DNA from: a phage
DNA: 64,000 bases
Reading direction: 5' to 3' (one strand)
Sequence record: PQ536907.1
The position numbers and the translations under genes were made by a program. This document shows positions 7,582 through 61,160 of this stretch, piece by piece. How positions within the stretch are numbered: position 1 is the first letter of the stretch; each line of letters starts with the position of its first letter. The notes beneath the pieces are model-generated. The model was not told where the DNA came from, did no database searches, and saw nothing but the letters and a program-made list of their open reading frames with translations.

Positions 7582-7622
7582 AATATTTTCCTCAGTAAGG
7601 GGCTAAAGCCCCTCATTTTATT

Positions 7623-8000
7623 TTAAATATCAAATTCATTAAGAACTACATCAAAGATTGCTTCAAGATGCTCAGATTTGGCTTTGTTACTCAGAATATG
7701 ACGAATCCAAGTTTTAACTAAGAGTTTACGATTAACGCCATTCCAGCAAGGATGAGTCCCTAAATCGCGTTGACGGAAATCATCATCCAGAGCGATTTTA
7801 AAGTTGGAACCTTCCATTGTGATTGAAACCGTGATACCGTTTTCAAATCGCATATAAACGTAATTAGGAGTCATATACTGATCGATTTCGCATACTGATC
7901 CGTTTTGATGTTTCCAGAGGCAAATAGTATCAATAGAACCTGCAATACCATTAGAAACATATTTACGTTCAAAGTTGATGTAGTTCATTTTATTCTCCAA
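7623..8000 (-). CDS. hypothetical protein (125 aa)
   Basis: ORF in 30.x block. Confidence 0.5.
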   Translation of the reverse strand: MENKMNYINFERKYVSNGIAGSIDTICLWKHQNGSVCEIDQYMTPNYVYMRFENGITVSITMEGSNFKIALDDDFRQRDLGTHPCWNGVNRKLLVKTWIRHILSNKAKSEHLEAIFDVVLNEFDI

Positions 8001-8055
8001 GATGTTTAATTGCGGTACAGGTATATAATATCATATCCTGTACCAAAGTAAACAA

Positions 8056-8388
8056 TTATTTTACTACTTTCCAATGCTGCATGTCAAGTTTACCAACTTT
8101 TTTCATCTTCTCAATTAAGCGTTCGGCACGTTGGCGAGCTGTAACATAATGCCATTCGCCTAATTCATTTTGTTCAATTTTTCCAACGATTACTGTATTC
8201 AATTCATAAATCCAACCAGTAAAGAAATTATGAACTTGAATTGTAAAGGTGAAATCTGTTCCCATACCTTCTGTTGTTTCTACTTCAATAATATCACCTT
8301 CAACTGCCATTAAGAACCACATAGTTTCATCATATTTACCATTGAAGCATTTAGTTTTAACTGTAGCGTTCAGATTAATCGTTTTCAT
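8056..8388 (-). CDS. hypothetical protein (110 aa)
   Basis: ORF with SD AAAGGAG upstream; driven by cassette at 8416-8493. Confidence 0.5.
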   Translation of the reverse strand: MKTINLNATVKTKCFNGKYDETMWFLMAVEGDIIEVETTEGMGTDFTFTIQVHNFFTGWIYELNTVIVGKIEQNELGEWHYVTARQRAERLIEKMKKVGKLDMQHWKVVK

Positions 8389-8415
8389 TTTATTCTCCTT
8401 TGTTTGTGTAAGATA

Positions 8416-8493
8416 ATACTATCACAAAGGAACCGTACTGTAAACAACTTTGTGCAATCTTTGGAAAATAAAAAAGGACTCCCGAAGGAGTCC
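8416..8493 (-). promoter_or_regulatory. Early sigma70-type promoter (-35 GTTTACA, 17-nt spacer, -10 TAGTAT) with upstream GC stem-loop terminator (PeSL-like cassette)
   Basis: Minus strand: hairpin ggactcc-cgaa-ggagtcc (8476-8493) followed by T-run, then GTTTACA (8439-8445) and TAGTAT (8416-8421). Confidence 0.55.
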
Positions 8494-8498
8494 TCAAC

Positions 8499-8675
8499 TT
8501 ATGCTTTCTGCTTACCAAAACGAGAAGCATCATCTCGAAGAACCGCACGTGCTCGGCGCATGATCTTCTCAACAGTTTGATTGATACGAGAGTTCGACCC
8601 ACGCTTGTAACCAGCGCGTTTAGAATCACCAACTTTCTTTTCAACTGCTTTCTTTGCTTTAGCTTGTTTTGCCAT
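8499..8675 (-). CDS. small highly basic protein (58 aa, MAKQAKAKKAVEKK...)
   Basis: ORF track gives 72 aa from an upstream Met; start at MAKQ preferred because of a weak SD upstream; Lys/Arg-rich. Confidence 0.45.
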   Translation of the reverse strand: MAKQAKAKKAVEKKVGDSKRAGYKRGSNSRINQTVEKIMRRARAVLRDDASRFGKQKA

Positions 8676-10276: not shown

Positions 10277-10857
10277 TATTCACCACAGAATTCGTTGATA
10301 TTTTCCCAATTTAACTTATTCAAGTTTTTCTTAGGAACATTAAACACTTCAATACCTGCATTTCGCAGAATATCATCCCAGCCAGGTTTATTTTTATCGT
10401 ATGTTTCACAATAAACCAGCTTTTTAATTCCAGATTGAGCTATCGCTTTTGCACAATCTGGGCAAGGAGAAAGTGTTACATACATAGTAGCACCTTCAAT
10501 AGAAGAACCATTTCGTGCAGCAAACAAAATCGCATTTAGTTCAGCGTGAATTTCATTTTTAGACGACCATTCAGAGTGAGCGCTACGGTGTTCTTTCGCC
10601 AAGACAAAACGATCAGTTGAACCAAACGATACGCATTCAGGCTTATGACCTTGAATGATAGTATGTTTAGGCTTGTTCAACAACCAGCCTTGTTCAGCAG
10701 CATAATCACAGCAATTCACACCACCAGCAGGTGAACCATTATATCCGGTAGAAATAATACGTCCATTCTTTTCAATTACTGCTCCTACCTTCCAGGAGCA
10801 GCATTTTGATTCTTGCGATACTAAATATGCAATTTGAAGTACTGTACTCGCTTTCAT
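10276..10857 (-). CDS. cd: dCMP deaminase
   Basis: 193 aa; zinc-dependent deaminase motifs (HAELNAI, SPCPDCAKAI). Confidence 0.9.
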   Translation of the reverse strand: MKASTVLQIAYLVSQESKCCSWKVGAVIEKNGRIISTGYNGSPAGGVNCCDYAAEQGWLLNKPKHTIIQGHKPECVSFGSTDRFVLAKEHRSAHSEWSSKNEIHAELNAILFAARNGSSIEGATMYVTLSPCPDCAKAIAQSGIKKLVYCETYDKNKPGWDDILRNAGIEVFNVPKKNLNKLNWENINEFCGE

Positions 10858-11192
10858 TTCATAATCACCAGATAAGCAGATTTAGCAGTTTCTACACGAT
10901 AAATTTCGTGACGAAGTTTAGTTATACTTTTAATAACAGAACTAATTATATTCTGCCCATCTTTAAAGCGGTTTTTCTTATCAATAAAAATTGCGCCAAC
11001 CAGCTTTTTGTGAAGCTCAACTGGATACTTCGTCACAATAATAGCATCATACACAGAAGGATGAATACTATTCACTAGAGTGTCATTCATTAAAGTTATT
11101 CTAATGAACTGTGCTGTTTCAGAGTCAAGCGCTCTATGATCGCCAGTATCATTTTCAAGACAATTATCAATTATATCAGTTAAATTCATCAT
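10854..11192 (-). CDS. hypothetical protein (112 aa)
   Basis: ORF in cd.x block. Confidence 0.5.
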   Translation of the reverse strand: MMNLTDIIDNCLENDTGDHRALDSETAQFIRITLMNDTLVNSIHPSVYDAIIVTKYPVELHKKLVGAIFIDKKNRFKDGQNIISSVIKSITKLRHEIYRVETAKSAYLVIMK

Positions 11193-11425: not shown

Positions 11426-11487
11426 TTTGTTTTCCTCATTTGTTTTGGTAGAGCTATAATATCACAACTCTACCGTAAAGTAAACTG

Positions 11488-16428: not shown

Positions 16429-17607
16429 TTAAAAGTATTTTTTAAAACTCATCATAACTTTATCATCAACATCATTATCAATCTGCGCTACAAGGTAAGA
16501 TGACAGTTCTACTTCTTGCGGCGCGGATTGAACATTATCAGAATTAAGGTATTCACGAATCCAAGGATATGGATGTTTAACCGGAGCATCGGTAATTGGG
16601 CATGGAAGACCACACTGTTTCATACGAGATACAGTTAAGTAATCAATAAAGCTCCACATGCTATTTGTATTTAATCCAGGAACATCGCCATTTTTAAATA
16701 AATGAACTGCCCAATCTTTTTCTTGGCGGTTAACTTCCATGAAAATATCAACTGCTTCTTGTTCACACTCTTTGGCAATTTTAACCCATTCATCACCATC
16801 CGTGCCAAGTTGAAGTTGACGAATAATATATTGTGTACCTTTAAGATGAAGCTGCTCATCACGTGCAATGAACTTCATAATCTTGGCATTACCTTCCATG
16901 ATTTCCATGTTCTTATGGAAGTTAAAGGTACATGCGAAAGATACATAAAAACGAATAGCTTCCAATGCGTTGATTACGTGTAGGCAGAGGTAAAGAGAGC
17001 GCATTAGTTCACGTTTCCAATACATTTCATGCTCTATGGCATCTTTAATATCATCTTCGTCTGCATTAATTTCTTTTTGGTATTCGATATCAGCTTTAGC
17101 GTTTTCCCAATAACGAGTTTTAATCAGAACATCATCATAATAGCGTCCAATAGATTCGGCTCGTTTCATGATTGCTTCATCTAATACAATCTCATCAAAT
17201 ACCTTTGACGGATCAGTATAAAGATTTCGCATGATATGTGTATATGAACGACTGTGAATAGTTTCACTAAAAGTCCATGTAGCAACCCATGTATCAAGAC
17301 TTGGGTCTGAAATTAACGACATAAGTACAGCAGACGGTGCACGACCCTGAATGCTATCTAGAAGTGATTGATACTTCAGGTTATTAGTAAAAATATCTTG
17401 CTGATATTGAGGAAGCTTGTTAAATTGCGCAGCATCCATCATTAAGTTTACTTCTTCAGGACGCCAGAAAAATGACAACTGCTTTTCGGTTAAATCTTCA
17501 AAAACTTTATGACGTTGAATATCATAACGCGCAATACCAAGGCCTGAACCAAAAAACATAGGTTCTTTTAAAACATCAACTGGATTTGTATTAAAAACTG
17601 TGCTCAT
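16429..17607 (-). CDS. nrdB: ribonucleotide reductase small subunit (uninterrupted)
   Basis: 392-aa continuous ORF with diiron/tyrosyl radical protein features; no intron. Confidence 0.95.
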   Translation of the reverse strand: MSTVFNTNPVDVLKEPMFFGSGLGIARYDIQRHKVFEDLTEKQLSFFWRPEEVNLMMDAAQFNKLPQYQQDIFTNNLKYQSLLDSIQGRAPSAVLMSLISDPSLDTWVATWTFSETIHSRSYTHIMRNLYTDPSKVFDEIVLDEAIMKRAESIGRYYDDVLIKTRYWENAKADIEYQKEINADEDDIKDAIEHEMYWKRELMRSLYLCLHVINALEAIRFYVSFACTFNFHKNMEIMEGNAKIMKFIARDEQLHLKGTQYIIRQLQLGTDGDEWVKIAKECEQEAVDIFMEVNRQEKDWAVHLFKNGDVPGLNTNSMWSFIDYLTVSRMKQCGLPCPITDAPVKHPYPWIREYLNSDNVQSAPQEVELSSYLVAQIDNDVDDKVMMSFKKYF

Positions 17608-17658
17608 AAATTTTCCACTTAGTTAATAGATAGTGACTCGTCCATGAGTCAAATTATA

Positions 17659-19923
17659 TCATAATTTACAGGATGAACAATCTTCAGCTTTTGGAGTTTC
17701 TATTTCATAATCATCAGTACCAGAACCATCGCGGGTATTATGATAATAGAAATTTTTTCCGCCAAAATACCAAAAATACAAAAGGTCATCAATCATTATT
17801 GACATTGGAACCTTTCCTTTTGGAAAAATCTGCGGGTCATAATATGTATTCGCCGAAGCTGATTGACAAACCCATTTCAGCATAATAGCTACCTGCGTAA
17901 GATAAGGTTTATTACCTTTCTTAGCTAATTTCCATGTATAATCATAGAGGTCTATGTTATGCTCAATATTGGGCACGACTTGATTAAAGGAGCCCTCTTT
18001 TGATTCTTTAACAGAGACTGGTCCACGTGGAGGCTCGATACCGTTTGTACTGTTAGAAACTTGGGAAGATGACTCACATGGCATAAGTGCTGATAATGTG
18101 CTATTACGGATGCCAAAGAGCTTAAGGTCTTCCCGCAGCGACGACCAGTCACAAACGTATTTTGGAGCTGCGATTTGGTCAATCTTTTTATTGTACCAGT
18201 CGATAGGTAATTCGCCTCGAGACCAACGAGTGTCTGAATAATATTCGCAAGGTCCTTTTTCTTTGGCGAGCTTAATGGATGCTTTAATGAGTCCATACTG
18301 TAATCTCTCAAATAGTTCATGTGTTAAATCGTTAGCATCTTCATAAGAAGCAAAGTTACTTGCCAGCCAAGCTGCATAGTTAGTAACACCTACACCAAGG
18401 TTTCGACGCTTTTTAGCTTTTTCTGCTTCAGGAACTGGATATCCTTGGTAATCCAAAAGATTATCAAGAGCACGAACTTGAACTTCTGCCAATTCATTAA
18501 TTTTATCTTGGTCTTGCCAATCGAAGTTATCCAGCACAAATGCAGATAACGTGCACAATCCAATTTCAGCATCGGGGCTATTCACATCATTTGTTGGAAT
18601 AGCAATTTCACAGCACAAGTTACTCTGACGAATAGGTGCCTTTTCACGAATAAATGGAGTATAGTTATTCGTATTATCAATGAACTGTACATAAATCCTT
18701 GCTGTTCCTGAGCGTTCAGTCATGAGCAATTCAAATAGTTCACGGGCTTTAATACGCTTTTTACGAATATTAGGGTCTTTTTCTGCTGCTTCGTATAATT
18801 CACGGAAACGGTCTTGGTCTTTAAAATAAGAATAATAAAGCTCGCCACCCATTTCATGCGGACTGAACAAAGTAATGTAATCGTTCTTTCCGAATCGTTC
18901 CATCATCAAATCATTCAGCTGAACACCATAATCCATATGACGAATGCGGTTTTCTTCTACGCCTTTGTTATTTTTCAAAACGAGAAGATTTTCAACTTCC
19001 AAATGCCAAATAGGATAATAAGCAGTAGCAGCGCCGCCACGAATTCCACCCTGTGAACATGATTTAACTGCAGTCTGAAAATGTTTCCAAAAAGGAATAA
19101 CACCGGTATGGCGTACTTCACCCATGCCAATCTTAGAACCTTCAGCACGAATCATACCAACGTTAATACCAATTCCAGCGCGTTTAGAGATATATTCAAC
19201 AATTGAAGCGGAAGCCTTATTGATAGACTTTAATGAATCACCTGCCTCAATAACAACGCATGAACTAAACTGTCGAGTCGGAGTACGGCAACCAGCCATA
19301 ATAGGAGTTGGCAATGAAATCTGTCGAGTAGATACTGCTTCATAAAAACGGATAACATGTTTTAGTCTATCAACAGGTTCATCTTGATGCAGTGCCATTC
19401 CAATAGTCATAAATGCAAACTGTGGAGTTTCATAAATTTGACCGGTGGTTTTATCTTTAACTAGATATTTTTCTTTTAATTGCATCGCCCCGGAATAAGT
19501 AAATTCCATATCCCGCTCGTGCTTAATTTTTGATTCTAAAAATGTAATTTCTTCTGCTGAATATTTTGACAATAATTCAGGGTCATATTTACCTGCATTT
19601 ACACAATAAGAAATATGGTCAATAAATGAACGCGGTTCATACTGCCCATAAACATGCTTACGAAGAGCGAACATTAGACAACGTGCAGCTACATATTGAT
19701 AATCAGGCTCTTCAACCGAAATAGAATTCGCAGCGGCCTTAATGACAATAGTCTGAATATCATCAGTTGTCATTCCATCACGGAGATAAGATTTAATATT
19801 TTCATATAATTCATAAGGATCTACTGATGTTCCTTCAGCTGCCCAAGATAAAACTTTAATAATTTTTTGTGGGTCAAAGCTCTGAGAAACACCACTACTT
19901 TTGATAACATTGATTAATTGCAT
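17659..19923 (-). CDS. nrdA: ribonucleotide reductase large subunit
   Basis: 754 aa; class Ia RNR catalytic motifs (NLCCEI, C-terminal CSSCKL). Confidence 0.95.
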   Translation of the reverse strand: MQLINVIKSSGVSQSFDPQKIIKVLSWAAEGTSVDPYELYENIKSYLRDGMTTDDIQTIVIKAAANSISVEEPDYQYVAARCLMFALRKHVYGQYEPRSFIDHISYCVNAGKYDPELLSKYSAEEITFLESKIKHERDMEFTYSGAMQLKEKYLVKDKTTGQIYETPQFAFMTIGMALHQDEPVDRLKHVIRFYEAVSTRQISLPTPIMAGCRTPTRQFSSCVVIEAGDSLKSINKASASIVEYISKRAGIGINVGMIRAEGSKIGMGEVRHTGVIPFWKHFQTAVKSCSQGGIRGGAATAYYPIWHLEVENLLVLKNNKGVEENRIRHMDYGVQLNDLMMERFGKNDYITLFSPHEMGGELYYSYFKDQDRFRELYEAAEKDPNIRKKRIKARELFELLMTERSGTARIYVQFIDNTNNYTPFIREKAPIRQSNLCCEIAIPTNDVNSPDAEIGLCTLSAFVLDNFDWQDQDKINELAEVQVRALDNLLDYQGYPVPEAEKAKKRRNLGVGVTNYAAWLASNFASYEDANDLTHELFERLQYGLIKASIKLAKEKGPCEYYSDTRWSRGELPIDWYNKKIDQIAAPKYVCDWSSLREDLKLFGIRNSTLSALMPCESSSQVSNSTNGIEPPRGPVSVKESKEGSFNQVVPNIEHNIDLYDYTWKLAKKGNKPYLTQVAIMLKWVCQSASANTYYDPQIFPKGKVPMSIMIDDLLYFWYFGGKNFYYHNTRDGSGTDDYEIETPKAEDCSSCKL

Positions 19924-21725: not shown

Positions 21726-22546
<821 letters not shown>

Positions 22547-22555
22547 TATATTTCC

Positions 22556-22798
22556 TCAAACAGACTTTTTCACAATTTTCCAATCAGATTTAAACTGGTC
22601 GACGTCAGAATGGTAAATCCAAAATCCTGCGCTTTCTCCGTCTTCATAAAGAGGGCACCCATCACATTCATCTTCCCATCCCATGCCACGTAAAAGGTGT
22701 TCAGCTTTTTCAACAAGTTCAGAATCTTTACCGATGATATTAAAATACCATTTACCTCTAACTTCCGAATCTTTGATGCTCTGACGTTGTAATCTCAT
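22556..22798 (-). CDS. hypothetical protein (80 aa)
   Basis: ORF with own early-type promoter (GTTTACA 22848-22854, TACTAT 22825-22830) and SD. Confidence 0.5.
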   Translation of the reverse strand: MRLQRQSIKDSEVRGKWYFNIIGKDSELVEKAEHLLRGMGWEDECDGCPLYEDGESAGFWIYHSDVDQFKSDWKIVKKSV

Positions 22799-22856
22799 TT
22801 TATTCTCCTCAAGTTGATAAGGCTATAGTATCATTACCATAGCCCGTTGTAAACAA

Positions 22857-23159
22857 TTATTTTTGAATTTTATCGAGCCACTTACCAAGCTTAATCATTT
22901 CTTTAGTAGCCTTTTCCATACTTCTGAACTTGACCAATAGAGGATAGGTATCGACACCCATAACTAAACTGGTTACAAGACTGTGTTCACCCACAAGCCA
23001 TAACGAATACGTTTGAATATCGAGCCCGTAATTTCTGTCTTTATGGACCCGTACACCCATCACTTCAAATTTCTCACTAGCTTTTTCTACCGCATCCAGG
23101 AAATCATCTTTAGTCATATTAGGCCTTAAAAGTTTTTCGCAAAAGTTCAATGATTTCAT
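22857..23159 (-). CDS. hypothetical protein (100 aa; start uncertain)
   Basis: ORF in frd-32 interval; overlaps next ORF so true start may be an internal Met. Confidence 0.45.
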   Translation of the reverse strand: MKSLNFCEKLLRPNMTKDDFLDAVEKASEKFEVMGVRVHKDRNYGLDIQTYSLWLVGEHSLVTSLVMGVDTYPLLVKFRSMEKATKEMIKLGKWLDKIQK

Positions 23160-23499
23160 CTACATTGTTTTCGTCAACAATGCAGTGAATTTTTGTTACG
23201 CCAGAAACCTTGTCTTTGACTTCATCTTCTTCAGAAGTCGGTTCTTTATACTCACGAAAACAATGAAATTCATCTTCGCAAATTTCTAAAAGTCTATCTT
23301 TGAGGTAAAAATGCTTTCCATTTGCGCATTCAATGTGTTTTACTGCTTTATATCCATTAGCGACGGAAACTTCTTTAACTTCAAACCATCCGCCATTCTC
23401 TCGAATGGCTTTAACTATTGATGAATTAGAACGTGGGCTATAATTAATAAATGTATCAATAAGTCTTGGAACAAGTTCATACTTTTTACCGGTATACAT
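23119..23499 (-). CDS. hypothetical protein (126 aa)
   Basis: ORF in frd-32 interval; GC hairpin aggggcttgatagcccct upstream. Confidence 0.5.
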   Translation of the reverse strand: MYTGKKYELVPRLIDTFINYSPRSNSSIVKAIRENGGWFEVKEVSVANGYKAVKHIECANGKHFYLKDRLLEICEDEFHCFREYKEPTSEEDEVKDKVSGVTKIHCIVDENNVDEIIELLRKTFKA

Positions 23500-23543
23500 T
23501 ACGGTTTCCTCATTTTAATAGGGGCTTGATAGCCCCTTGATAA

Positions 23544-23771
23544 TTATTGTTCAATCAGTCCCATGTAAAATTCTGCGTCTTCAGAATCCATACCATCACA
23601 ATATTCATTAGCCATAAAGCGGGTGAGGTCTTCAAGAGGACCTTCAATAACGATTTGAATACTCCAAAACTTAGAATCTTGCACGCTTGTGATACTAAGT
23701 TCAGGATAACGATTACGAATAATTTCTTCGATATATTCAAAATCAACGATGTCAATATCAACTTTAGCCAT
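23544..23771 (-). CDS. hypothetical protein (75 aa, [13 protein letters not shown]...)
   Basis: ORF-track start is a TTG inside the promoter; ATG at 23771 with SD AAAGAGGA is preferred. Confidence 0.5.
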
Positions 23772-23809
23772 ATTATTTTCCTCTTTAATCATCAGCAGTA
23801 TTGCCGATA

Positions 23810-23895
23810 GTTGTATAGTACCATGGAAGGACAAGGATGTAAACCGTTTTGTGAAAAAATTTTTGAAATAAAAAAGGGGACCCTAGAGGTCCCCA
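23810..23895 (-). promoter_or_regulatory. PeSL-like cassette: gene 32 terminator stem-loop followed by early promoter (-35 GTTTACA, -10 TACTAT)
   Basis: Hairpin ggggacc-ctaga-ggtcccc (23876-23894) plus T-run on minus strand; GTTTACA 23838-23844; 17-nt spacer; TACTAT 23815-23820; A/T-rich block between. Confidence 0.6.
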
Positions 23896-23916
23896 ATTAA
23901 TTAGTAATATAATCTA

Positions 23917-24825
23917 TTAAAGGTCATTCAAAAGGTCATCTAGGTCCGTGTCATCAGCACTAGATGAACTGCCAGAGCTTGAGCTCATAAAATCATCTTC
24001 AGTTTTTGTATTGAAGTCATCAACATTGAATGCATCCAAATCATCAGCAACTTTATCAGCTTTCTTAGCAGCAGTTGCAGCGGCACCGCCCATCACAGCA
24101 GTTCCCATGACTTGACCGAATTTAGTGCTCAGTTCTTCAAACGATTTGAATTTATCTTTAGAAGTCATTTCAGAAAGGTCAACCATTTGTTCGAACAGTT
24201 CTTTCTGGAAAGATTCATCGTCAATGTTTGGAATCGCAGATTGATTTAGGAATTTAGATTCATCGTAGTTACTAAATCCAGAAACCTGTTTAACTTTCAG
24301 TACAAAGTTAGCACCTTCCCACGGACAAGTTACATCAACTGGAGTTTCACCCATTTCAACATCAACCGCAATCATCGCGTTGATTTTATCCCAGATTTTC
24401 TTACCGAAACGATATTTAAATACTTTACCTTCATTTTCTGGAGCAGCTGGGTCTTTTACAACAAGAATGTTAGCCCAGTAAGAAGTTTTACGTTTAACAA
24501 GACTGTACTCTTTATTGTCAGTGTTGTACAGATCATTTTTACTGATGTACTGACATACTGGGCAAGAATCGTAATCACCGTGGGTAGATGAACAGTTTTC
24601 AATATACCATTTACCATTTTTCTTGAAACCGTGATTTACAAGAATTGCGAATGGTGCTTGTTCATCATTTTTAGACGGAAGAAAACGAATTACTGCTTGA
24701 CCGTTACCCGCATTGTCGAGTTTCAGTTTCCACTCGCCTTTATCTTCAGAAGAAAAACCACCTTTATTTCCAGCCAGTTTAGCCATTTGTGCAGCGAGTT
24801 CAGCAGTAGATTTACGTTTAAACAT
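23917..24825 (-). CDS. 32: gp32 single-stranded DNA-binding protein
   Basis: 302 aa, [17 protein letters not shown]...; acidic Ser/Asp-rich C-terminal tail; matches recalled T4 gp32. Confidence 0.95.
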
Positions 24826-24916
24826 TTTTATTTCCTTTTTAATTTAATTAACAGTTGGTGCTATGACGATGTATGACCTCATAGCTGGTCAGTGAGATAA
24901 TTATAATCTATTTATA
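24826..24916 (-). promoter_or_regulatory. Gene 32 5' leader: AU-rich autoregulatory operator, candidate pseudoknot, and late promoter TATAAATA
   Basis: Minus-strand leader ...ctcactgaccagctatgaggtcatacatcgtcatagcaccaactgttaattaaattaaaaaggaaataaaaATG; TATAAATAG at 24909-24916. Confidence 0.55.
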
Positions 24917-24924
24917 ATAAGCAA

Positions 24925-25578
24925 TTAATACTTGCAAGATTTCACAGTTTCAATAAAAACTTTTTTAGCTTCCTGTGAATCAATATTTAAAATTTTTCTA
25001 TAAGCCTTTAACTTTATAGAATAATTATTCCAGACTAAATTATCAGTCTGTTCATCATGTTTATCAATTATATTTAAAAACGAATCAAGCAAGATAAACG
25101 TTTCAAACGAAATTATGTTCGATTGCAGAAGTTTAAAAATATAACTTGACTGAACCTTTGGATTATATTCAAAGATTTCTTTAAAAGCAGAAACTTCAAC
25201 TTTTTTACTAAAATAATAAATGTTGCGAATATCTTCTTCAAACTTAAATTTAATTTGCTTTAAGCGTCCGATATATTCACGATAAAACACAAGTGCATCA
25301 GCGTCAGAGATGTCACCAATCCAAGCATCTTGGTTAGCAACCAAATTACTTATAAAGATTAAAGCAAGTTCCTTTAATTTATATTTTTCTGATAACTTCT
25401 GGAAAAAATACTTATCCCTTCGCTTTTGATAAGCGGCATCAGACACCCGCATGCACCAATTATACTTAATTACATCATACTTTCCATTCATATGCTGTTT
25501 TATCATTAAGTATAATTTATAAACTGATTTACCATCAATATATCTTTCACCACCAGCAGGCATGCGGAGTTTAATCAT
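24925..25578 (-). CDS. 59: gp59 helicase loader
   Basis: 217 aa; position between 32 and 33; matches recalled T4 gp59. Confidence 0.9.
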   Translation of the reverse strand: MIKLRMPAGGERYIDGKSVYKLYLMIKQHMNGKYDVIKYNWCMRVSDAAYQKRRDKYFFQKLSEKYKLKELALIFISNLVANQDAWIGDISDADALVFYREYIGRLKQIKFKFEEDIRNIYYFSKKVEVSAFKEIFEYNPKVQSSYIFKLLQSNIISFETFILLDSFLNIIDKHDEQTDNLVWNNYSIKLKAYRKILNIDSQEAKKVFIETVKSCKY

Positions 25579-25913
25579 AGCAGAAAGTCTAACGTATTCG
25601 TTTTTTCACATCTAACAACAGAAGGGCGTAAAAGATTTTCGTCAATAGCTTCTGACTGAATTTTTTCAATTATACCCGAAGGAATAAATTTAGCAAATTG
25701 AGTTTCAGGAATAGAGTTTTCTTCCAAGAATGCTGTCGTAGCTTCAAGATAACTCATTCCAAATTCTTCTACCATTTTTTCAATAATAAATCCATTTTCT
25801 TGGCGGTCAAGAAGCTTTGCAATTTCATCCTTTTCTTTCTTAATTGAAAGTTCTTTTTCTGAAAGCCCGGCCTCATCGACCGGGCGAATATCATTTAGAG
25901 AAAACTGTGTCAT
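25575..25913 (-). CDS. 33: gp33 late transcription co-activator
   Basis: 112 aa from MTQFSLNDIRPVDE... Confidence 0.85.
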   Translation of the reverse strand: MTQFSLNDIRPVDEAGLSEKELSIKKEKDEIAKLLDRQENGFIIEKMVEEFGMSYLEATTAFLEENSIPETQFAKFIPSGIIEKIQSEAIDENLLRPSVVRCEKTNTLDFLL

Positions 25914-26160
25914 AAAGTTCAACTACCTCTTCGGTTTCAGCTTCAAACACATCACGGTTATCTTTATGATATAGAGCCAAAAGACGATTAAACATCTTGC
26001 CATCAACACCAAGTTCATCTTTGGCACGAATTCGAATATCTTTAATCAATTCATTATAACCAGAAATTTTCAGTTTATGATCAGATGCTTCTTTAATAAA
26101 TTTAGCCAAATCTTCGCCATGGATAGCTTCATCAAATTCAACCATTTCTTTTTTAGCCAT
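25891..26160 (-). CDS. dsbA: DsbA double-stranded DNA-binding protein
   Basis: 89 aa; position between rnh and 33. Confidence 0.8.
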   Translation of the reverse strand: MAKKEMVEFDEAIHGEDLAKFIKEASDHKLKISGYNELIKDIRIRAKDELGVDGKMFNRLLALYHKDNRDVFEAETEEVVELYDTVFSK

Positions 26161-26168
26161 TATTCACC

Positions 26169-27086
26169 TCAAAATTCATTAATGCTATTAGTTAATTTAG
26201 AAAGACCCGCTTTTACAAAATATGAATAAATTTTGCCACGCGGTGGTAATTTATATGAATTATAGTAATTCACAATGTTTGAAGCAATATTATCAGGAAT
26301 ATAATCAAAATCAATTAGAACTAGATTTTCTTTATAACGATTATATTCAGATTCTGTGAGAAGCACCTTAGCTTGCTCACGGTCATTAGCAATAGCTTCA
26401 ACGATTGAAGTTTTCATTGAAGGAGTTCGTTCACCTTCAACTTTGGTAAACCAAAAGTCAGATCGTACTTTAACTGAAGCAACGTTATCCTTTTTGTCGC
26501 CTTTAAGGATTTTAGTCATACAGTCAATTTCAGCAGAACCGCTTTTAATTTTAACCCATTTCTTGTGCATCGGTGACCATTGCTTAACATTTGGGTATTT
26601 GTGAAGCTGTGTAAAGTCACCATCCGACGAAATGATTAAAATCTTATGTCCTTCTAAAGAGAACTTTTTAACAAGAACAGCAATGTGGTCATCTGCTTCA
26701 TACTTATCAATATCCATAACAATGTATGGCATATAAGCTTTCAATTCATCTATAACTTTATGACTGGATTCAAAATAACCTTCCCAGTCCCAAGTCGATT
26801 CTTCTCGTGCTTTTCCACGGTTTTTCTTATAATAATAAGCGAAATCACGACGCCAGTATCCAGATTTCGCGTTATCAATACACAGTACAATTTTAGTGTA
26901 TCCAAGCGTTTTTGCTTTTTTGACATTAAACTTAATTGAGTTCAATATCAAATGACGAACCATTGATAAATTAATTTTTTCTTTATCTGGGAAGTTTACT
27001 AAAGCAGTTGAAAGCGCAATTTGACTAAAGTCAATAAAGCAAATTCCTTCTTTGTAATCTTCATCCAGCATCATTTCTAAATCCAT
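26169..27086 (-). CDS. rnh: RNase H (5'-3' exonuclease, FEN-1 family)
   Basis: 305 aa from MDLEMMLDEDYKEG...; matches recalled T4 RNase H. Confidence 0.9.
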   Translation of the reverse strand: MDLEMMLDEDYKEGICFIDFSQIALSTALVNFPDKEKINLSMVRHLILNSIKFNVKKAKTLGYTKIVLCIDNAKSGYWRRDFAYYYKKNRGKAREESTWDWEGYFESSHKVIDELKAYMPYIVMDIDKYEADDHIAVLVKKFSLEGHKILIISSDGDFTQLHKYPNVKQWSPMHKKWVKIKSGSAEIDCMTKILKGDKKDNVASVKVRSDFWFTKVEGERTPSMKTSIVEAIANDREQAKVLLTESEYNRYKENLVLIDFDYIPDNIASNIVNYYNSYKLPPRGKIYSYFVKAGLSKLTNSINEF

Positions 27087-27115
27087 ATGAACCTCGTTCA
27101 ATTAGTGAGATTTCT

Positions 27116-27156
27116 ATTATATACCATCCAAATCTTAAAGTAAACAAGTATAAATA
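27116..27156. promoter_or_regulatory. Back-to-back divergent promoters: rnh early promoter (minus) and gene 34 late promoter TATAAATA (plus)
   Basis: Minus strand GTTTAC (27140-27145), 16-nt spacer, TATATAAT (27116-27123); plus strand TATAAATA at 27149-27156, 35 nt before the gene 34 ATG. Confidence 0.55.
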
Positions 27157-27190: not shown

Positions 27191-30100
27191 ATGGCCGAGA
27201 TTAAAAGAAAGTTCAGAGCAGAAGACGGTCTGGACGCAGGTGGTGATAAAATAATCAACGTAGCTTTAGCTGATCGTACCGTAGGAACTGACGGTGTTAA
27301 CGTTGATTACTTAATTCAAGAAAACACAGTTCAACAATACGATCCAACTCGTGGATATTTAAAAGATTTTGTAATCATTTATGATAACCGCTTTTGGGCT
27401 GCTATAAATGATATTCCAAAACCGGCAGGAGCTTTTAATAGCGGACGCTGGAGAGCATTACGTACCGATGCTAACTGGATTACGGTTTCATCTGGTTCAT
27501 ATCAATTAAAATCTGGTGAAGCTATTTCGGTTAACACCGCAGCTGGTAATGATATTACATTTACTTTACCATCTACCCCAATTGATGGTGATACTATCGT
27601 TCTCCAAGATATTGGAGGAAAACCTGGAGTTAACCAAGTTTTAATTGTAGCTCCGGTGCAAAGTATTGTAAACTTCAGAGGTCAACAAGTACGTTCAGTA
27701 CTAATGACTCATCCAAAATCGCAGATAGTTTTAATTTTTAGTAATCGTCTGTGGCAAATGTATGTTGCTGATTATAGTAGAGAAGCTGTAGTTGTAACAC
27801 CAGCAAGTCTCTATCAGGCGCAATCTAATGATTTTATCGTACGTAGATTTACTTCTGCTGCACCAATTAATGTTAAACTTCCAAGATTTGCTAATCATGG
27901 CGATATTATTAATTTCGTTGATTTAGATAAACTGAATCCACTTTATCATACAATTGTTACTACATACGATGAAACGACTTCAGTACAAGAAGTTGGAACT
28001 CATTCCATTGAAGGCCGTACATCAATTGACGGTTTCTTGATGTTTGATGATAATGAGAAATTGTGGAGATTGTTTGACGGGGATAGTAAAGCACGTTTAC
28101 GCATTATAACGACTAATTCTAATATTCGTCCAAACGAAGAAGTCATGGTATTTGGTGCGAATAACGGAACAACTCAAACAATTGAGCTTCAGCTTCCAAC
28201 TAATATTTCTGTTGGTGATACTGTTAAAATTTCCATGAATTACATGAGAAAAGGACAAACAGTTAAAATCAAAGCTGCGGGCGAAGATAAAATTGCTTCT
28301 TCAGTTCAATTACTGCAATTCCCAAAACGCTCAGAATATCCACCTGAAGCTGAATGGGTTACAGTTCAAGAATTAGTTTTTAACGGTGAAACTAATTATG
28401 TTCCAGTTTTACAACTTGCTTATATAGAAGATTCTGATGGAAAATACTGGGTTGTACAGCAAAACGTTCCAACTGTAGAAAGAGTTGATTCTTTAAATGA
28501 TTCTACTAGAGCAAGATTAGGCGTAATTGCTTTAGCTACACAAGCTCAAGCTAATGTCGATTTAGAAAATTCTCCACAAAAAGAATTAGCAATTACTCCA
28601 GAAACATTAGCTAACCGTACTGCTACTGAAACTCGCAGAGGTATTGCAAGAATAGCAACTACTGCTCAAGTGAATCAGAACACCACATTCTCTTTTGCAG
28701 ATGACCTTATCATTACTCCTAAAAAGCTGAATGAAAGAACTGCTACAGAAACTCGTAGAGGTGTTGCTGAAATTGCTACGCAGCAAGAAACTAATGCAGG
28801 AACCGATGATACTACAATCATCACTCCTAAAAAGCTTCAAGCTCGCCAAGGTTCTGAATCATTATCTGGTATTGTAACTTTTGTATCTACTGCAGGTGCT
28901 ACTCCGGCTTCTAGCCGCGAATTAAATGGTACCAACGTTTATAATAAAAACACTAATAATTTAGTTGTTTCACCTAAAGCTTTGGATCAGTATAAAGCTA
29001 CTCCAACGCAACAAGGTGCAGTAATTTTAGCAGTTGAAAGTGAAGTAATTGCTGGACAGAGTCAAGAAGGATGGGCAAATGCTGTTGTAACGCCAGAAAC
29101 GTTACATAAAAAGACATCAACTGATGGAAGAATTGGTTTAATTGAAATTGCTACGCAAAGTGAAGTTAATACAGGAACTGATTATACTCGTGCAGTCACT
29201 CCTAAAACTTTAAATGACCGTAGAGCAACTGAAAGTTTAAGTGGTATAGCTGAAATTGCTACACAAATTGAATTCGACGCAGGCGTCGACGATACTCGTA
29301 TCTCTACACCATTAAAAATTAAAACCAGATTTAATAGTACTGATCGTACTTCTGTTGTTGCTCTATCTGGATTAGTTGAATCAGGAACTCTCTGGGACCA
29401 TTATACCCTTAATATTCTTGAAGCAAATGAGACACAGCGTGGTACACTTCGTGTAGCTACACAGGTCGAAGCTGCTGCAGGAACATTAGATAATGTTTTA
29501 ATAACTCCTAAAAAGCTTTTAGGTACTAAATCTACCGAATCACAGGAAGGTGTTATTAAAGTTGCAACTCAGTCTGAAACTGTGACTGGAACGTCAGCAA
29601 ATACTGCTGTATCTCCAAAAAATTTAAAATGGATTGTGCAGAGTGAACCTACCTGGGCAGCTACTACTGCGATAAGAGGTTTTGTTAAAACTTCATCTGG
29701 TTCAATTACATTCGTTGGTAATGATACAGTCGGTTCTACCCAAGATTTAGAACTGTATGAGAAAAATAGCTATGCAGTATCACCATATGAATTAAACCGT
29801 GTATTAGCAAATTATTTGCCGTTAAAAGCAAAAGCTGTAGATAGTAATTTATTGGATGGTCTAGATTCATCTCAGTTCATTCGTAGGGATATTGCACAGA
29901 CGGTTAATGGTTCACTAACCTTAACCCAACAAACGAATCTGAGTGCCCCTCTTGTATCATCTAGTACTGCTGCGTTTGGTGGTTCAGTTTCGGCAAATAG
30001 TACATTAACTATTTCTAATACTGGAACGGCAACTCGTCTGATTTTTGAGAAAGGACCTCAAACTGGAACTAACCCAGCACAGACGATGACTATTAGAGTT

Positions 30101-37686: not shown

Positions 37687-37839
37687 TCAATTAGTTGACT
37701 TTGTTATAATATCATCAGACGCTTGATTTGTAAACTGGTCTGTGTTATTTTCTTCAAAAATTTTTTCTACGAATTCCTTGAACGACTTACGTTCCTGAGC
37801 TACATTATGCTCGATTACTTTTTCAAGATTATGACTCAT
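37687..37839 (-). CDS. small ORF (50 aa, MSHNLEKVIEHNVAQERKSFKEF...), below the ORF-track length cut-off
   Basis: Found by manual translation; its ATG overlaps the arn stop (ATGA). Confidence 0.35.
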   Translation of the reverse strand: MSHNLEKVIEHNVAQERKSFKEFVEKIFEENNTDQFTNQASDDIITKSTN

Positions 37840-38696: not shown

Positions 38697-39157
38697 TAGT
38701 AAAGGTCCTCAGAGTAAAGTTCTTTTTCACTACCACCACGTTCAATACGTACTTGTCCAGCGTAAGTTGCAATAATCATTGCTTCTTCACGTGTCCAATA
38801 ATTACTATATTGGTCAATAAACCCTTGGTCATCATCACAAACTTGTTGAGTAACTAATTGGGGTTTAACTACATCTAAAACTTCTGCCATATCTTTAGAA
38901 TAATGACGAGCACCTGGAATAATAAGAGTTCGTCCATCTTTTAATTTAAACCGATTAGCAGCACATACAATTCGTCGTTGATACTTTTGGTTTTCATCCC
39001 AATATGCAGTCTGCCAACAGATTTCAGGAACTTCTTTCAGAATATCTTCTTCTGTGCATTTATAACCGTGTGCTTTAAATTTTTGAACAAGACTTTCTGG
39101 AGTCTCGCGAGATAAAGGAACATTCAGCATTTTTAAACGATTAACAAACGGGTTCAT
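38696..39157 (-). CDS. hypothetical protein (153 aa)
   Basis: ORF in arn.x block. Confidence 0.5.
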
Positions 39158-39483
39158 TTAAACCATCCTTTAATACGTTGCCACAAAGTTTTCTGTTGAG
39201 CTTTGTTAACACCAATTGAACGAATAACTGGTTGAGATTCCTGGAATTCTTTATAATCAGCAAGGTAAATTTCGTAAGCTGCATCCGTAAATGAACTTAT
39301 CGCTGCCATAAAATTATTACGAATACCTACTGGAGCATCTTTACTTTCACGAATAATCATGTATTTACCAGTCTTAATCTTTACGATAGTTCCAAGATAA
39401 GCTCCATGATACCAGATGTCCCAACCCTCTTGGGTAGGTTCTGCACAACGACGAAGTTCATTAACAATTTCTAACTTGTTCAT
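39154..39483 (-). CDS. hypothetical protein (109 aa)
   Basis: ORF in arn.x block. Confidence 0.5.
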
Positions 39484-39493
39484 TATTTATTCC

Positions 39494-40129
39494 TCACAGT
39501 TCAGATGCTACAGTGATTACTGCTTCAATGTTTTCTACCGAGCGTTTAATGTCAAGATACACATTACCGTTTTTAGCGATTTTACATGACATTCCGATGT
39601 CAGTAAATTTCTGAATATGATGTTCCATCATTTTGTATCCAAAAATTCGCATGTTTCCATTGTTGTTAATTTCAAAATTACGAATTCCGTGAGTGCGTTT
39701 TTCTAAAATGGCAAGATAATTACTACGATAAGTTTCAACCTTTTTAAGAACAAATCCATTTTCATCTAAAAGTTTTAACATGAGGTCTTTATCTTCTTCC
39801 ATATCGGAAGTAATCTCGCGAGCTTTACGAGTTGCTCGTTTTTTCAGTAGTTCCGGAGCATTTTCCTGTGCATATAAAGTTGCTGCATTTGAAATAATAT
39901 CCTGAGCTTCACCAGTAATGATTAATCCATCACCAGATTTCTCCACCAGGCCTTTTTTAATCAATACCCCAATATTACTATTAACTACTGCGTTACCTAA
40001 ATCTGGATGCACCTCACGAACTTCTGCAGCTGTAATGAAATCTTTCTTAGCAATAGTAATTAAAATCGCAGCAGTTTTTTCATTCAGAACATCGTTAGAA
40101 GCTTTGATGATGTAAGTTACTTTAGACAT
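39494..40129 (-). CDS. motA: MotA middle-transcription activator
   Basis: 211 aa, MSKVTYIIKASNDVLNEKTAAILITIAKKDF... Confidence 0.95.
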   Translation of the reverse strand: MSKVTYIIKASNDVLNEKTAAILITIAKKDFITAAEVREVHPDLGNAVVNSNIGVLIKKGLVEKSGDGLIITGEAQDIISNAATLYAQENAPELLKKRATRKAREITSDMEEDKDLMLKLLDENGFVLKKVETYRSNYLAILEKRTHGIRNFEINNNGNMRIFGYKMMEHHIQKFTDIGMSCKIAKNGNVYLDIKRSVENIEAVITVASEL

Positions 40130-40164: not shown

Positions 40165-40252
40165 AGTTGTATAGTACCACAGTATGCTTTGGTTGTAAAC
40201 CGTTTTATGAAAAAATTTTTGAAATAAAAAAGGGAGAGCCGAGGCTCTCCCT
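40165..40252 (-). promoter_or_regulatory. PeSL-like cassette: terminator stem-loop plus early promoter driving motA
   Basis: Hairpin gggagagcc-gag-ggctctccc (40232-40251) plus T-run; GTTTACA 40194-40200; 17-nt spacer; TACTAT 40171-40176; nearly identical to the cassette at 23810-23895. Confidence 0.6.
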
Positions 40253-42037: not shown

Positions 42038-42193
42038 TCAACTATTTTTAGAACCAATGTACGCGAATAATGATAAAATCGCTAATACGCCCTGAGCTGA
42101 TGCTTGCAAAAATACTGAAGTTTCTCCGGTTATTACTGTTCCGATGCATAAAAAGAACCAACAGAAAAAGGCTATACCGTGAACAAATTTCAT
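42038..42193 (-). CDS. ac: probable Ac (acridine sensitivity) small membrane protein, 51 aa
   Basis: Manual translation MKFVHGIAFFCWFFLCIGTVITGETSVFLQASAQGVLAILSLFAYIGSKNS; 51 aa, immediately upstream (in coordinate) of stp as in T4. Confidence 0.5.
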   Translation of the reverse strand: MKFVHGIAFFCWFFLCIGTVITGETSVFLQASAQGVLAILSLFAYIGSKNS

Positions 42194-43449: not shown

Positions 43450-43692
43450 TTTCTGTTCCTCCGTAGTTGATAGTTGTATAGTACCACAGAGGAACAGTCT
43501 TGTAAACAACTTTTTTAAAAATATTCGTAATAAATGTGAATACCAATCACTACTGCCGAAACTTGTGCAACCAACCATGCACACGCAATAAGTACAGAAT
43601 TCAAAATTTTCATAATAACCTCATCACAAAAGTAAATGTTAAACAAATTACTGGAATACTAATTAACCAAACAAAACACCACCATAATGAAC

Positions 43693-43983: not shown

Positions 43984-44038
43984 ATAGTACCACGGTCCTT
44001 GTGGTATGTAAACCATTTTGTGAAATTTTTTTTTTTTT
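43984..44038 (-). promoter_or_regulatory. Early promoter (-35 GTTTACA, -10 TACTAT) with upstream A13 tract
   Basis: GTTTACA 44007-44013; 17-nt spacer; TACTAT 43984-43989; 13-nt homopolymer 44026-44038 directly after the denB stop. Confidence 0.5.
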
Positions 44039-44594: not shown

Positions 44595-44657
44595 TTAAAC
44601 TTTCCTTTATGTCGGAATCATAATTTCTCTTAAAACAAAAGGGCCGAAGCCCTTATT

Positions 44658-48226: not shown

Positions 48227-48280
48227 TTCAATATCCTCATTTGCCCAATTAATTATACCACATCCTTGTGGTAAAGTAAA

Positions 48281-51922: not shown

Positions 51923-52007
51923 GTTGTTTTCTGTATCAGTAGTTGATATTGATATAGTACCATAATCAACTACTGATGTATATAGTTTTATGAAAAAATT
52001 TTAAACT

Positions 52008-52499: not shown

Positions 52500-52572
52500 A
52501 ATTATCTCTCACTTGTTAAAAAGATTTTATACTCCGCAGGACCATTATACTCTGGTCCCAAGAGTTTGTAAA

Positions 52573-53076
52573 CTAGCTTACACGAACATTAATCACTGCG
52601 CTGCGAGGAACTACAGAGTACTCTCCAGCATGAACTACGTTCAGAAGTTCAACGCCATCTTCAATCCACTGGTCAGTTACCCAACCACCGACCGGATTCG
52701 CGAATGGACGACGAATGTAAACCGCCTTACACAACAAATCAGTCGGGTCTTCAATTTTTTCAACTGGTGCCACATACATAGAAACTAAATCCATATCAAT
52801 ATGGAATTTTTCCTGTTCTTCTTTTTCAATTTCTGTCAATAGACTAAAATCTTTTTCATAAATAATAAGCGATGACACCATTCCATAATAGTTTCTAATT
52901 TCAATATACATCATGCCGATAAGAATTCCGCTATTAACACTAATAACAGTAAAAGGATATCCGCCAGTTAAAGCAAGAAGTTCACAAAACTTATTATGAG
53001 ATGTATTAGACAGTACCGGAAAATTCTTAATTTCATCAAATTTTTTCAATTGATAAACAGCATTATTTTTAATCAT
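52573..53076 (-). CDS. MotB-paralog-like protein (167 aa)
   Basis: Shares C-terminal motif with preceding ORF (TDQW.EDGV.L.N.V..G.Y.V.P.S). Confidence 0.5.
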   Translation of the reverse strand: MIKNNAVYQLKKFDEIKNFPVLSNTSHNKFCELLALTGGYPFTVISVNSGILIGMMYIEIRNYYGMVSSLIIYEKDFSLLTEIEKEEQEKFHIDMDLVSMYVAPVEKIEDPTDLLCKAVYIRRPFANPVGGWVTDQWIEDGVELLNVVHAGEYSVVPRSAVINVRVS

Positions 53077-53599: not shown

Positions 53600-53662
53600 T
53601 TTATTATCCTCAGTAGCTATGGTGTTATAATACCACAACTAACCGAGGAAGTAAACAACTTT

Positions 53663-57455: not shown

Positions 57456-57578
57456 ATTTTTCTCACATCTTACGGACGGTTAACTACTTATACTATAACA
57501 TTTTTACCTTAACTTGTAAACAACTTTATGTAAAAATGCTTTAAAACTTTCATGGTATAATGAATCTAAGTCCTTCCA

Positions 57579-58801: not shown

Positions 58802-58868
58802 GATAGCCTCCGTATACTTCAGAAGCTATCATATCATCGTTAGAAAGGAAAGTAAACAACTTTTTGAA

Positions 58869-61088: not shown

Positions 61089-61151
61089 ATTATACCACAC
61101 TCATTTTGACATGTAAACCATAAAATGAAAAAAGGAATCCCGAAGGATTCC
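61089..61151 (-). promoter_or_regulatory. PeSL-like cassette: soc terminator stem-loop plus early promoter (-35 GTTTACA, -10 TATAAT)
   Basis: Hairpin ggaatcc-cgaa-ggattcc (61134-61151); GTTTACA 61112-61118; 17-nt spacer; TATAAT 61089-61094. Confidence 0.6.
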
Positions 61152-61160
61152 TTAAATTAT

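Follow-up and report, generated by a model that had tools for sequence, protein, structure and literature searches.

The window, by which we mean the whole 64-kb stretch of DNA that was analysed, is a segment of a Tequatrovirus (T4-like) genome with gene order as in T4. On the minus strand it carries alt, 30, cd, pseT, nrdB/A, td, frd, 32, 59, 33 and rnh, and these are followed by a plus-strand block of late tail-fibre genes, 34-38, with t. Beyond the tail-fibre block the minus strand holds asiA, motA, 52, ndd, denB, rIIB, rIIA and 39, and the series continues with motB, dexA, dda, modA/B, mrh, soc, 56 and 61. Over positions 22000-26000 the identity was 100% with Escherichia phage vB_Eco_Some and about 97-98% with many other phages. 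A match to the whole region was found in no record of the phage collection, the best 25-kb match having 98% coverage and 95.5% identity, and a search of the entire window against Rfam at the gathering threshold returned no family match.

Short repeat units punctuate the minus-strand genes at 17 sites. Motifs of this class are sigma-70-dependent immediate-early promoters, and the 17 sites very probably serve a T4-like phage as early promoters of this type, with the terminator of the preceding gene fused to four of them. The original prediction had listed 13 minus-strand sites, four full cassettes and nine variants. All 13 exist, with GTTTAC(A/T), a 17-nt spacer and a -10 of TAnnAT type, although four further sites had been missed (8025-8053, 27116-27145, 37706-37735 and 58828-58857), and the variant placed at 51936-51978 is a real site whose true span is 51954-51983 and whose -35 is degenerate (ATATACA). 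The predicted elements of the four full cassettes (terminator plus promoter) are as follows.

8416-8445, minus strand: 30.8 early promoter (GTTTACA-N17-TAGTAT; T4 ortholog 130310-130281)
8474-8495, minus strand: intrinsic terminator hairpin downstream of 30.9 (UUCG loop, T-run; -16.4 kcal/mol, z -3.95)
23815-23844, minus strand: frd.3 early promoter (GTTTACA, spacer alpha, TACTAT; T4 ortholog 146875-146846)
23845-23875, minus strand: UP-like A/T block of the frd.3 promoter
23876-23894, minus strand: gene 32 intrinsic terminator hairpin (GGGGACCTCTAGGGTCCCC, then T-run; -15.2 kcal/mol, z -2.4)
40171-40200, minus strand: motA early promoter (GTTTACA, spacer beta, TACTAT; T4 ortholog 163673-163644)
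40231-40252, minus strand: intrinsic terminator hairpin downstream of motA.1 (AGGGAGAGCCTCGGCTCTCCCT, then T-run; -20.0 kcal/mol, z -4.8)
61089-61118, minus strand: mrh.2 early promoter (GTTTACA-N17-TATAAT; T4 ortholog 15288-15259), lacking a long A/T block
61132-61153, minus strand: intrinsic terminator hairpin downstream of soc (UUCG loop, T-run; -12.7 kcal/mol, z -3.55)

The remaining 13 predicted promoters have no upstream terminator.

8025-8053, minus strand: 30.7 early promoter (stem-loop over the -10, z -4.7; T4 ortholog 129918-129890)
11456-11485, minus strand: cd.2 early promoter (stem-loop over the -10, z -3.9; T4 ortholog 133331-133302)
22825-22854, minus strand: frd.1 early promoter (stem-loop over the -10, z -3.2), an allele that arrives with ORF22857
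27116-27145, minus strand: rnh early promoter, in the divergent rnh/gene 34 spacer (T4 ortholog 150763-150734, 100% identity)
37706-37735, minus strand: asiA early promoter, within the 3' end of asiA.1 (T4 ortholog 161211-161182)
43478-43507, minus strand: early promoter of an ndd.4-like ORF (15-bp stem over the -10, with the SD, GGAGG, in its 3' arm; -23.2 kcal/mol, z -4.85)
43984-44013, minus strand: early promoter downstream of denB (the stack of small ORFs behind it varies between phages)
48252-48281, minus strand: rIIA.1 early promoter, beginning at the gene 39 stop codon (T4 ortholog 2458-2429, 100% identity)
51954-51983, minus strand: paralog of the motA promoter (-35 ATATACA; 13-bp stem over the -10, z -4.8)
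52544-52573, minus strand: motB early promoter (stem-loop over the -10, z -3.0)
53627-53656, minus strand: motB.2 early promoter (stem-loop over the -10, SD in its 3' arm; -23.7 kcal/mol, z -5.8)
57492-57521, minus strand: srd early promoter (GTTTACA-N17-TATAGT; T4 ortholog 11851-11822), with no significant stem-loop (z -0.4)
58828-58857, minus strand: modB early promoter (hairpin pairing the -10 region with the SD and AUG, z -4.0)

The motif GTTTACN{16,18}TANNAT occurred 16 times in the window, always on the minus strand, against 0.76 expected (100 shuffles, maximum 3). A generic sigma-70 scan (TTGACA/TATAAT) gave the same counts as shuffled sequence (76 vs 76.0, 77 vs 76.6 and 84 vs 81.5), so the signal is the T4-specific -35 motif. 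Exact matches were intergenic and followed by an SD and ATG 25-45 nt downstream, the only exception being a match at 27644-27673, antisense within gene 34, with neither a UP block nor a downstream ORF. All sites lay on the early-transcribed strand, and the late tail-fibre block was free of them except for this one antisense match. An A/T-rich genome may match a sigma-70-like consensus by chance, a reading favoured by the shuffle-level counts of the generic scan and by the stray match inside gene 34. It has a negligible probability of explaining the set in the face of the 16 strand-restricted matches, their intergenic position ahead of an SD and ATG, the conservation of 16 of the 17 sites in T4 and the extra conservation outside the hexamers; that reading is refuted for 16-17 sites and may hold for 27644-27673.

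Multiple alignment of the sites, which the original prediction had proposed as a check, revealed conservation beyond the hexamers. The -35 GTTTAC(A/T) was exact at 16 of the 17 sites and degenerate (ATATACA) at one, and spacers were 16-17 nt at all 17 when counted from TTTACA. Ahead of the TAttAT -10 the alignment showed a conserved tgTGg, i.e. an extended -10 TG. Directly upstream of GTTTAC lay an A-rich UP-like block (consensus aaaaa..t...A.AaA.T.), weakest at mrh.2, motB and rIIA.1, and downstream of the promoters a short leader with an SD, often GGAG, was conserved in register as A.aa.tatcaa. T4 early promoters have been described as 'uber UP/-35/TGn/-10' promoters with extra conserved regions (Hinton 2010, PMC2988021), with GTTTAC at -36 to -31 and an A-rich block at -40 to -44, many of them sitting 5' of novel ORFs (Nolan et al. 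2006, PMC1524935). The window sites share with these T4 promoters the GTTTAC(A/T), the 17-nt spacing, the extended -10 TG, the TAnnAT, the A-rich UP-like block and the position 5' of early genes and small novel ORFs, and do not differ from them in kind. Two sites depart in detail: at frd.1 the window phage has a different promoter copy and an extra ORF relative to T4, and the degenerate -35 of 51954-51983 is unlike those of T4 early promoters. The latter site has a motA-type leader, 89% identical to the motA leader, and T4 lacks the ORF that follows it.

Positional T4 orthologs were found for 16 of the 17 sites. The cd.2 site maps to T4 coordinates with a +1 near 133295, which is the 'early promoter Pe133295 between cd.2 and cd.3' of a RefSeq note; apart from this one misc_feature note, the T4 RefSeq record has no annotated promoter features. 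Promoter and terminator activity in the window phage is predicted from orthology with T4 together with sequence. A MITE-like or transposon reading of the repeats was rejected: they have no terminal inverted repeats and no target duplications, and the copies are positionally orthologous across genomes.

The GC stem-loop and T-run upstream of four promoters had been read as the terminator of the upstream gene, and our folding agreed, with four stable hairpins (-12.7 to -20.0 kcal/mol, z -2.4 to -4.8), each followed by a T-run. Their stems were 8-9 bp with 5-6 G-C pairs and their tails TTTTTT. The loops had been described as of GNRA/UUCG type; two are indeed UUCG, the others are CUCG and a CUA triloop, and none is GNRA. 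The -10 hexamers, given as TACTAT or TATAAT, include a TAGTAT in the 8416 copy. The description of a near-identical unit of ~80 bp holds for 23810-23895 and 40165-40252, the frd.3 and motA cassettes, which showed 97% identity in the 30 nt that precede the -35 and had TGGTACTATACAACTATC in common. Even these two have unrelated spacers and different hairpins in the window, and the 30.8 and mrh.2 cassettes (the copies at 8416 and 61089) match the others at consensus level only (27-57% upstream, 26-52% in the leader), so that 'near-identical' is right for just two of the four 'copies'. A further leader sequence, ACAACTATCAACTAC, was common to five promoters (frd.3, motA, ndd.4, orf87 and orf51641) in mosaic combinations. 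Between unrelated promoters, spacers were near background identity (0.32 vs 0.27). The closest database records include spurious 'hypothetical proteins' of 105-108 bp called over two of the cassettes.

The terminator-promoter unit behind gene 32 is conserved. We found the series of gene 32 stop, GC hairpin, T-run and GTTTAC(A/T)-N17-TAnnAT, with the hairpin at the terminator position, in 19 of 20 T4-like loci, among which the identity of gp32 fell as low as 57%; across these 20 loci the ORF downstream of the unit differs between genera. Compensatory double changes affected five of the six stem pairs among 14 distinct T4-like sequences. Nolan et al. (2006, PMC1524935) likewise reported the terminator downstream of gene 32 as conserved in five of six T4-like genomes. 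In T4 and the window the terminator occupies the equal position, with an orthologous hairpin and T-run; the loop of the window hairpin is the exact reverse complement of that in T4, that is, inverted, and the loop of the motA hairpin is likewise inverted between the two. The T4 gene 32 terminator is experimentally characterised and was used in the omega interposon, and the gene 32 hairpin is presumably a working terminator.

Eight of the 13 terminator-less promoters had a stem-loop around the -10 (z -3.0 to -5.8), bearing out the suggestion that an inverted repeat brackets the -10 in many variants, and the other five lacked a significant stem-loop. The 3' arm of the stem-loop contains the SD at ndd.4, motB.2 and modB.

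Elements of this kind are already known as the promoter-early stem-loops (PeSLs) of Arbiol et al. (2010, PMC2839356), which Comeau, Arbiol & Krisch (2014, PMC4122927) extended explicitly to T4/PST, with a consensus of TTTACW-N17-TAYWAT and an upstream stem-loop; both the T4 early promoters and the T4/PST PeSLs are published. The likeness to PeSLs noted in the original prediction was confirmed by an exact fit to this consensus at 13 of the 17 sites, the misfits being TAGTAT, TATAGT and TATGAT -10s and the one degenerate -35. Like T4/PST PeSLs, the window units combine an A/T-rich region, an early promoter, a stem-loop, an SD and a start codon, and lie in blocks of small early ORFs near indels; the ndd.4/ndd.5 exchange that Comeau et al. 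give as their own example falls in window region 43.0-44.1 kb. In terms of PeSL architecture, four sites have an upstream terminator hairpin, eight a stem-loop over the -10 (z <= -3) and five no significant stem-loop. PST stem-loops lie just upstream of the promoter, whereas most stem-loops in the window enclose the -10, as in RB49/phi1 subclasses. The RB49/phi1 PeSLs (Arbiol et al. 2010, PMC2839356) resemble the window elements in architecture and proposed role, with stem-loops between or over the promoter boxes. They differ in having near-perfect TTGACA/TATAAT promoters with polyG/polyC stems, and Arbiol et al. call the T-even elements analogs, not homologs. Mini-circles have been shown experimentally in RB49/phi1. 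Recognising the window elements, which are textbook T4 biology, adds correct annotation and nothing new beyond that.

We investigated whether the cassettes mark the boundaries of variable ORF blocks, as had been claimed. The comparators were 26 loci, namely T4, vB_Eco_Some, FriedrichZschokke, JoYop, SH-2, F13076 and KK4 together with 19 IMG/VR loci cut from five Tequatrovirus contigs; because IMG/VR is dereplicated, scans of it yielded only about 4 close Tequatrovirus genomes, and close relatives were therefore taken from the phage collection. Blastn blocks were chained and every break of at least 40 bp was listed, and two artefactual chaining 'breaks' (JoYop 22833-26722 and KK4 39117-40127) were removed and replaced by hand-checked events. 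Indel or replacement breakpoints fell at nine of 17 promoter-bearing junctions and at 25 of 90 promoter-less ones (one-sided p = 0.04). Promoter junctions are longer targets, so we matched intergenic length: when the comparison was confined to junctions whose intergenic DNA was at least 40 nt long, 9/16 with a promoter and 6/15 without were polymorphic (p = 0.29). Unlike the association reported in PMC4122927, the length-matched test in the window did not show that indels prefer PeSL junctions. The boundary claim is thus only partly supported, and the popular indel-boundary idea does not survive control for intergenic length in this data set.

The individual events were varied. Early promoters were lacking at 25 of the 34 polymorphic junctions. 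Many events were introns or homing-endonuclease genes (nrdB, td, mobE, segG, the SH-2 nrdA insertion and gene 60/mobA), and others were ORF indels at tight gene junctions with overlaps of 5-17 bp. Next to promoters, five comparator loci (vB_Eco_Some and L114-L117) carried a 514-522-bp ORF between the SD and ATG of cd.2 without a second promoter. Downstream of denB, the small ORFs that follow one promoter number none in T4, and are ORF87 in the window, ORF68 in JoYop and both in SH-2, with joints all at ...taaaATGaaa.... Phage G8 lacks 30.8 and 30.7 through a deletion (7611-8393) that ends in the leader of the 8416 cassette, frd.1 has three alleles whose right-hand joint is always in the leader, and the deletion that removes motB.1/motB.2 in SH-2 has its end 2-3 nt upstream of the motB promoter -35. 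Most promoter-adjacent ORF indels had only one end in a cassette and were joined at short SD/ATG homologies (taaaATGaaa), so recombination between promoters is not needed to explain them. Arbiol et al. (2010, PMC2839356) mapped mini-circle crossovers between the -10 and the SD/ATG, which places the window indel joints inside the PeSL as defined there and makes them similar in position to the RB49/phi1 crossovers.

These data bear on the alternative that the cassettes are purely regulatory, with no special role in recombination. Their similarity would then reflect common descent and selection for an optimal promoter, and indels would cluster near them only because insertions do little harm in intergenic spacers and a place directly behind a promoter gives a new ORF its best chance of survival. 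The non-significant length-matched test, the excess of polymorphic junctions without a promoter, the joints at SD/ATG microhomology and the 5-17 bp overlaps at many promoter-less indels all fit this alternative, as do the near-background spacers of unrelated promoters, which selection on function only would be expected to give. We nevertheless regard it as rather unlikely, on account of an ORF bracketed by promoter/leader repeats and, above all, of identical spacers shared by two loci.

The bracketed ORF lies at motA. In KK4, L084 and L086, the full cassette is followed by a 75-aa ORF (ORF75) and then by a second GTTTAC promoter, and the ORF has on either side a 33-nt repeat made up of -10 and leader, with two mismatches; L085 also has ORF75 at motA, with a damaged upstream cassette. 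This arrangement resembles ORFan192 of RB49/phi1. ORF75 was the sole ORF module flanked by two copies, other promoter-adjacent indels having one cassette. It was present in 168 records, at one place in each, and a search for it at other loci in the phage collection records found none. Mobility of the whole module is thus not supported.

The spacers gave more direct evidence. In the frd.3 and motA cassettes the 17-nt spacer occurred as three unrelated alleles, alpha, beta and gamma. Alpha (tccttgtccttccatgg) was at frd.3 in the window and in most genomes compared. Beta (accaaagcatactgtgg) was at motA in most genomes, and also at frd.3 in SH-2 and F13076. T4 carried gamma (agcataaagctttatgg) at frd.3, whereas KK4 had it at motA. 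In every genome compared, hairpins and leaders were locus-specific, so the limits of the exchanged tract are set by the blocks that the two cassettes share, a T-run/UP/-35 block of about 40 nt at one end and a -10/leader block (TGGTACTATACAACTATC) of about 18 nt at the other.

When the phage collection was searched with queries that span the junctions, beta was found at frd.3 in 83 records, gamma at frd.3 in 85, Sanger-sequenced T4 included, and gamma joined to the ORF75 leader at motA in 53. The exact arrangement of alpha joined to the motA leader was not found in the phage collection, and the search for it exposed another member of the family, downstream of gene 43 in wV7, in which a variant of alpha (tccctgttcttctatgg) is joined to a motA-type leader; the same tccctgttcttctatgg is the spacer carried by L006 at frd.3. 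Assembly errors are unlikely to be the origin of the shared spacers, because Sanger-sequenced T4 itself has gamma at frd.3 and beta at motA.

Convergence cannot explain identical 17-mers at different loci. Nor are selection or descent alone sufficient for identical spacers set, in dozens of records, within locus-specific hairpins and leaders; sharing of this kind implies physical exchange, and the purely regulatory reading is to that extent partly refuted. The spacers shared by frd.3 and motA thus show short ectopic exchange between cassettes and provide a clean sequence-level proof that cassettes at different loci recombine. The two loci lie 16 kb apart, and a reciprocal crossover between them would cost the phage essential genes, so the mechanism is most likely short-patch ectopic conversion. 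Ectopic spacer exchange is mentioned in neither Arbiol 2010 (PMC2839356) nor Comeau 2014 (PMC4122927).

Exchange through general homologous recombination has to be weighed against dedicated site-specific recombination, in which a protein would recognise the GC hairpin. Arbiol et al. (2010, PMC2839356) speculate along these lines for GGGG...CCCC stems, and the inversion of the gene 32 and motA hairpin loops between the window and T4 shows that the palindromes are mutationally active. Against this, the hairpins differ between cassettes and stay locus-specific while the spacer exchanges, the exchanged tract is bounded by shared homologous blocks and not by the hairpin, and the upstream GC hairpin is absent at 13 of the 17 promoters. 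We therefore consider a dedicated system highly improbable.

In the reading that we favour, the elements would work as follows. Host RNA polymerase would fire from the window promoters immediately after infection. At full cassettes the terminator T-run passes directly into the A/T-rich block that precedes the -35 and appears to double as part of it, so that about 80 bp would both end one transcript and start the next. A stem-loop over the -10 would form only in read-through RNA from upstream, because a locally started transcript lacks the 5' arm. In the three cases with the SD in the 3' arm, ribosomes would translate read-through RNA poorly, and locally initiated RNA would be open. With about 40 nt and about 18 nt, the shared blocks probably offer enough homology for the recombination machinery of the phage to pair the loci, and such pairing of copies may be how the 17-nt spacer passed between frd.3 and motA.

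We therefore lean, with some reserve, towards the view that the dispersed early-promoter cassettes of Tequatrovirus form a concerted, mosaic family in which exchange spans the 16 kb between frd.3 and motA. The PeSL 'linker' model presupposes recombination between cassettes and in T-even phages had rested mainly on the proximity of indels, and the spacer exchange lends direct support to the idea, put forward in the original prediction, that these elements act as recombination linkers. If the view is correct, a concerted family of this kind would reshuffle promoter strength and keep up the homology that lets ORF modules move.

The terminator hairpins of two early-promoter cassettes, that of gene 32 (upstream of the frd.3 promoter) and that downstream of motA.1 (upstream of the motA promoter), both match their T4 orthologs (locus L002) exactly when reverse-complemented: GGGGACCTCTAGGGTCCCC at window 23876-23894 versus GGGGACCCTAGAGGTCCCC in T4, and GGGAGAGCCTCGGCTCTCCC at window 40231-40252 versus GGGAGAGCCGAGGCTCTCCC in T4. 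At each of these two independent sites a loop inside a palindromic stem has undergone inversion, and close relatives carry the hairpins in either orientation.

A further hairpin lies near denB. Some other T4-like genera have an extra element inserted between the terminator of gene 32 and the next early promoter; it is either a gtaac...acgttac repeat or a long palindrome, ggcacatatatgttacat...atgtaacatatatgtgcc, of ~60 nt. A search across window positions 1-64000 returned no Rfam family at gathering score.

Window 44639-44654: bidirectional hairpin AAGGGCTTCGGCCCTT in the denB.1/denB gap, with a T-rich tail on each strand
L020 and L022, ~10920-11010: gene 32 terminator/promoter insertions, other T4-like genera
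L008 and L009, ~10960-11030: gene 32 terminator/promoter insertions, other T4-like genera

The denB.1/denB hairpin has no GTTTAC promoter, and a 242-bp insertion lies ~30 bp from it in vB_Eco_Some, JoYop and G8.

Both of the paralogous cassettes, frd.3 and motA, are damaged in a single genome, IMGVR_UViG_2974787500_000001 (167,948 bp), with a different deletion at each locus. The damage may be genuine or may stem from the assembly.

L007, ~10880-10960: frd.3 cassette; last codons of gene 32, hairpin and T-run deleted
L085, ~10640-10760: motA cassette; T-run, A/T-rich UP block and -35 deleted, hairpin kept

Insertions also distinguish the window from some of its relatives.

Window 42040-42189: 148-bp insertion with a 51-codon ORF, between ac and stp
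16931, 17607-17663, 20762, 24888-24924 and 48616-48681: T4 elements missing from the window (nrdB and td introns, mobE, segG, gene 60/mobA insertion)

The ends of the ac/stp insertion overlap by 15 bp in the alignment, which indicates a direct repeat. The insertion is present in FriedrichZschokke and missing from 10 of the comparators that span the region (T4, vB_Eco_Some, JoYop, SH-2, F13076, KK4 and loci L084-L087). Because the window lacks the gene 60/mobA insertion, its gene 39 is uninterrupted (606 codons). The nrdA gene of SH-2 is interrupted by a 933-bp insertion.

Two small features were found at other loci.

Window 27644-27673, minus strand: exact GTTTACA-N17-TACAAT, antisense within gene 34
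L002 ~27020-27110 (T4 ~146020-146110): 22-codon ORF in the leader that separates frd.1 from its promoter

The gene 34 motif is kept in T4 at 151291, and has neither an A/T-rich block nor a downstream ORF; it is an antisense promoter or else matches by chance. The leader ORF, MFAPYIMAAVMLVCLYLLIKAC, is hydrophobic, unannotated and preceded by its own SD in T4 and KK4 (L101); it is absent from SH-2, F13076 and JoYop, and the window carries a different allele.

In vB_Eco_Some, the closest record, two CDSs annotated as 'hypothetical protein', SOME_221 and SOME_187, overlie hairpin-plus-promoter cassettes.

Window 23792-23896 and ~8414-8521: CDSs over cassettes, vB_Eco_Some annotation

Over the gene 32 cassette, a 105-bp ORF has been called in F13076 and KK4 as well. 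The CDSs annotated on cassettes in these three phages are probably spurious gene calls.
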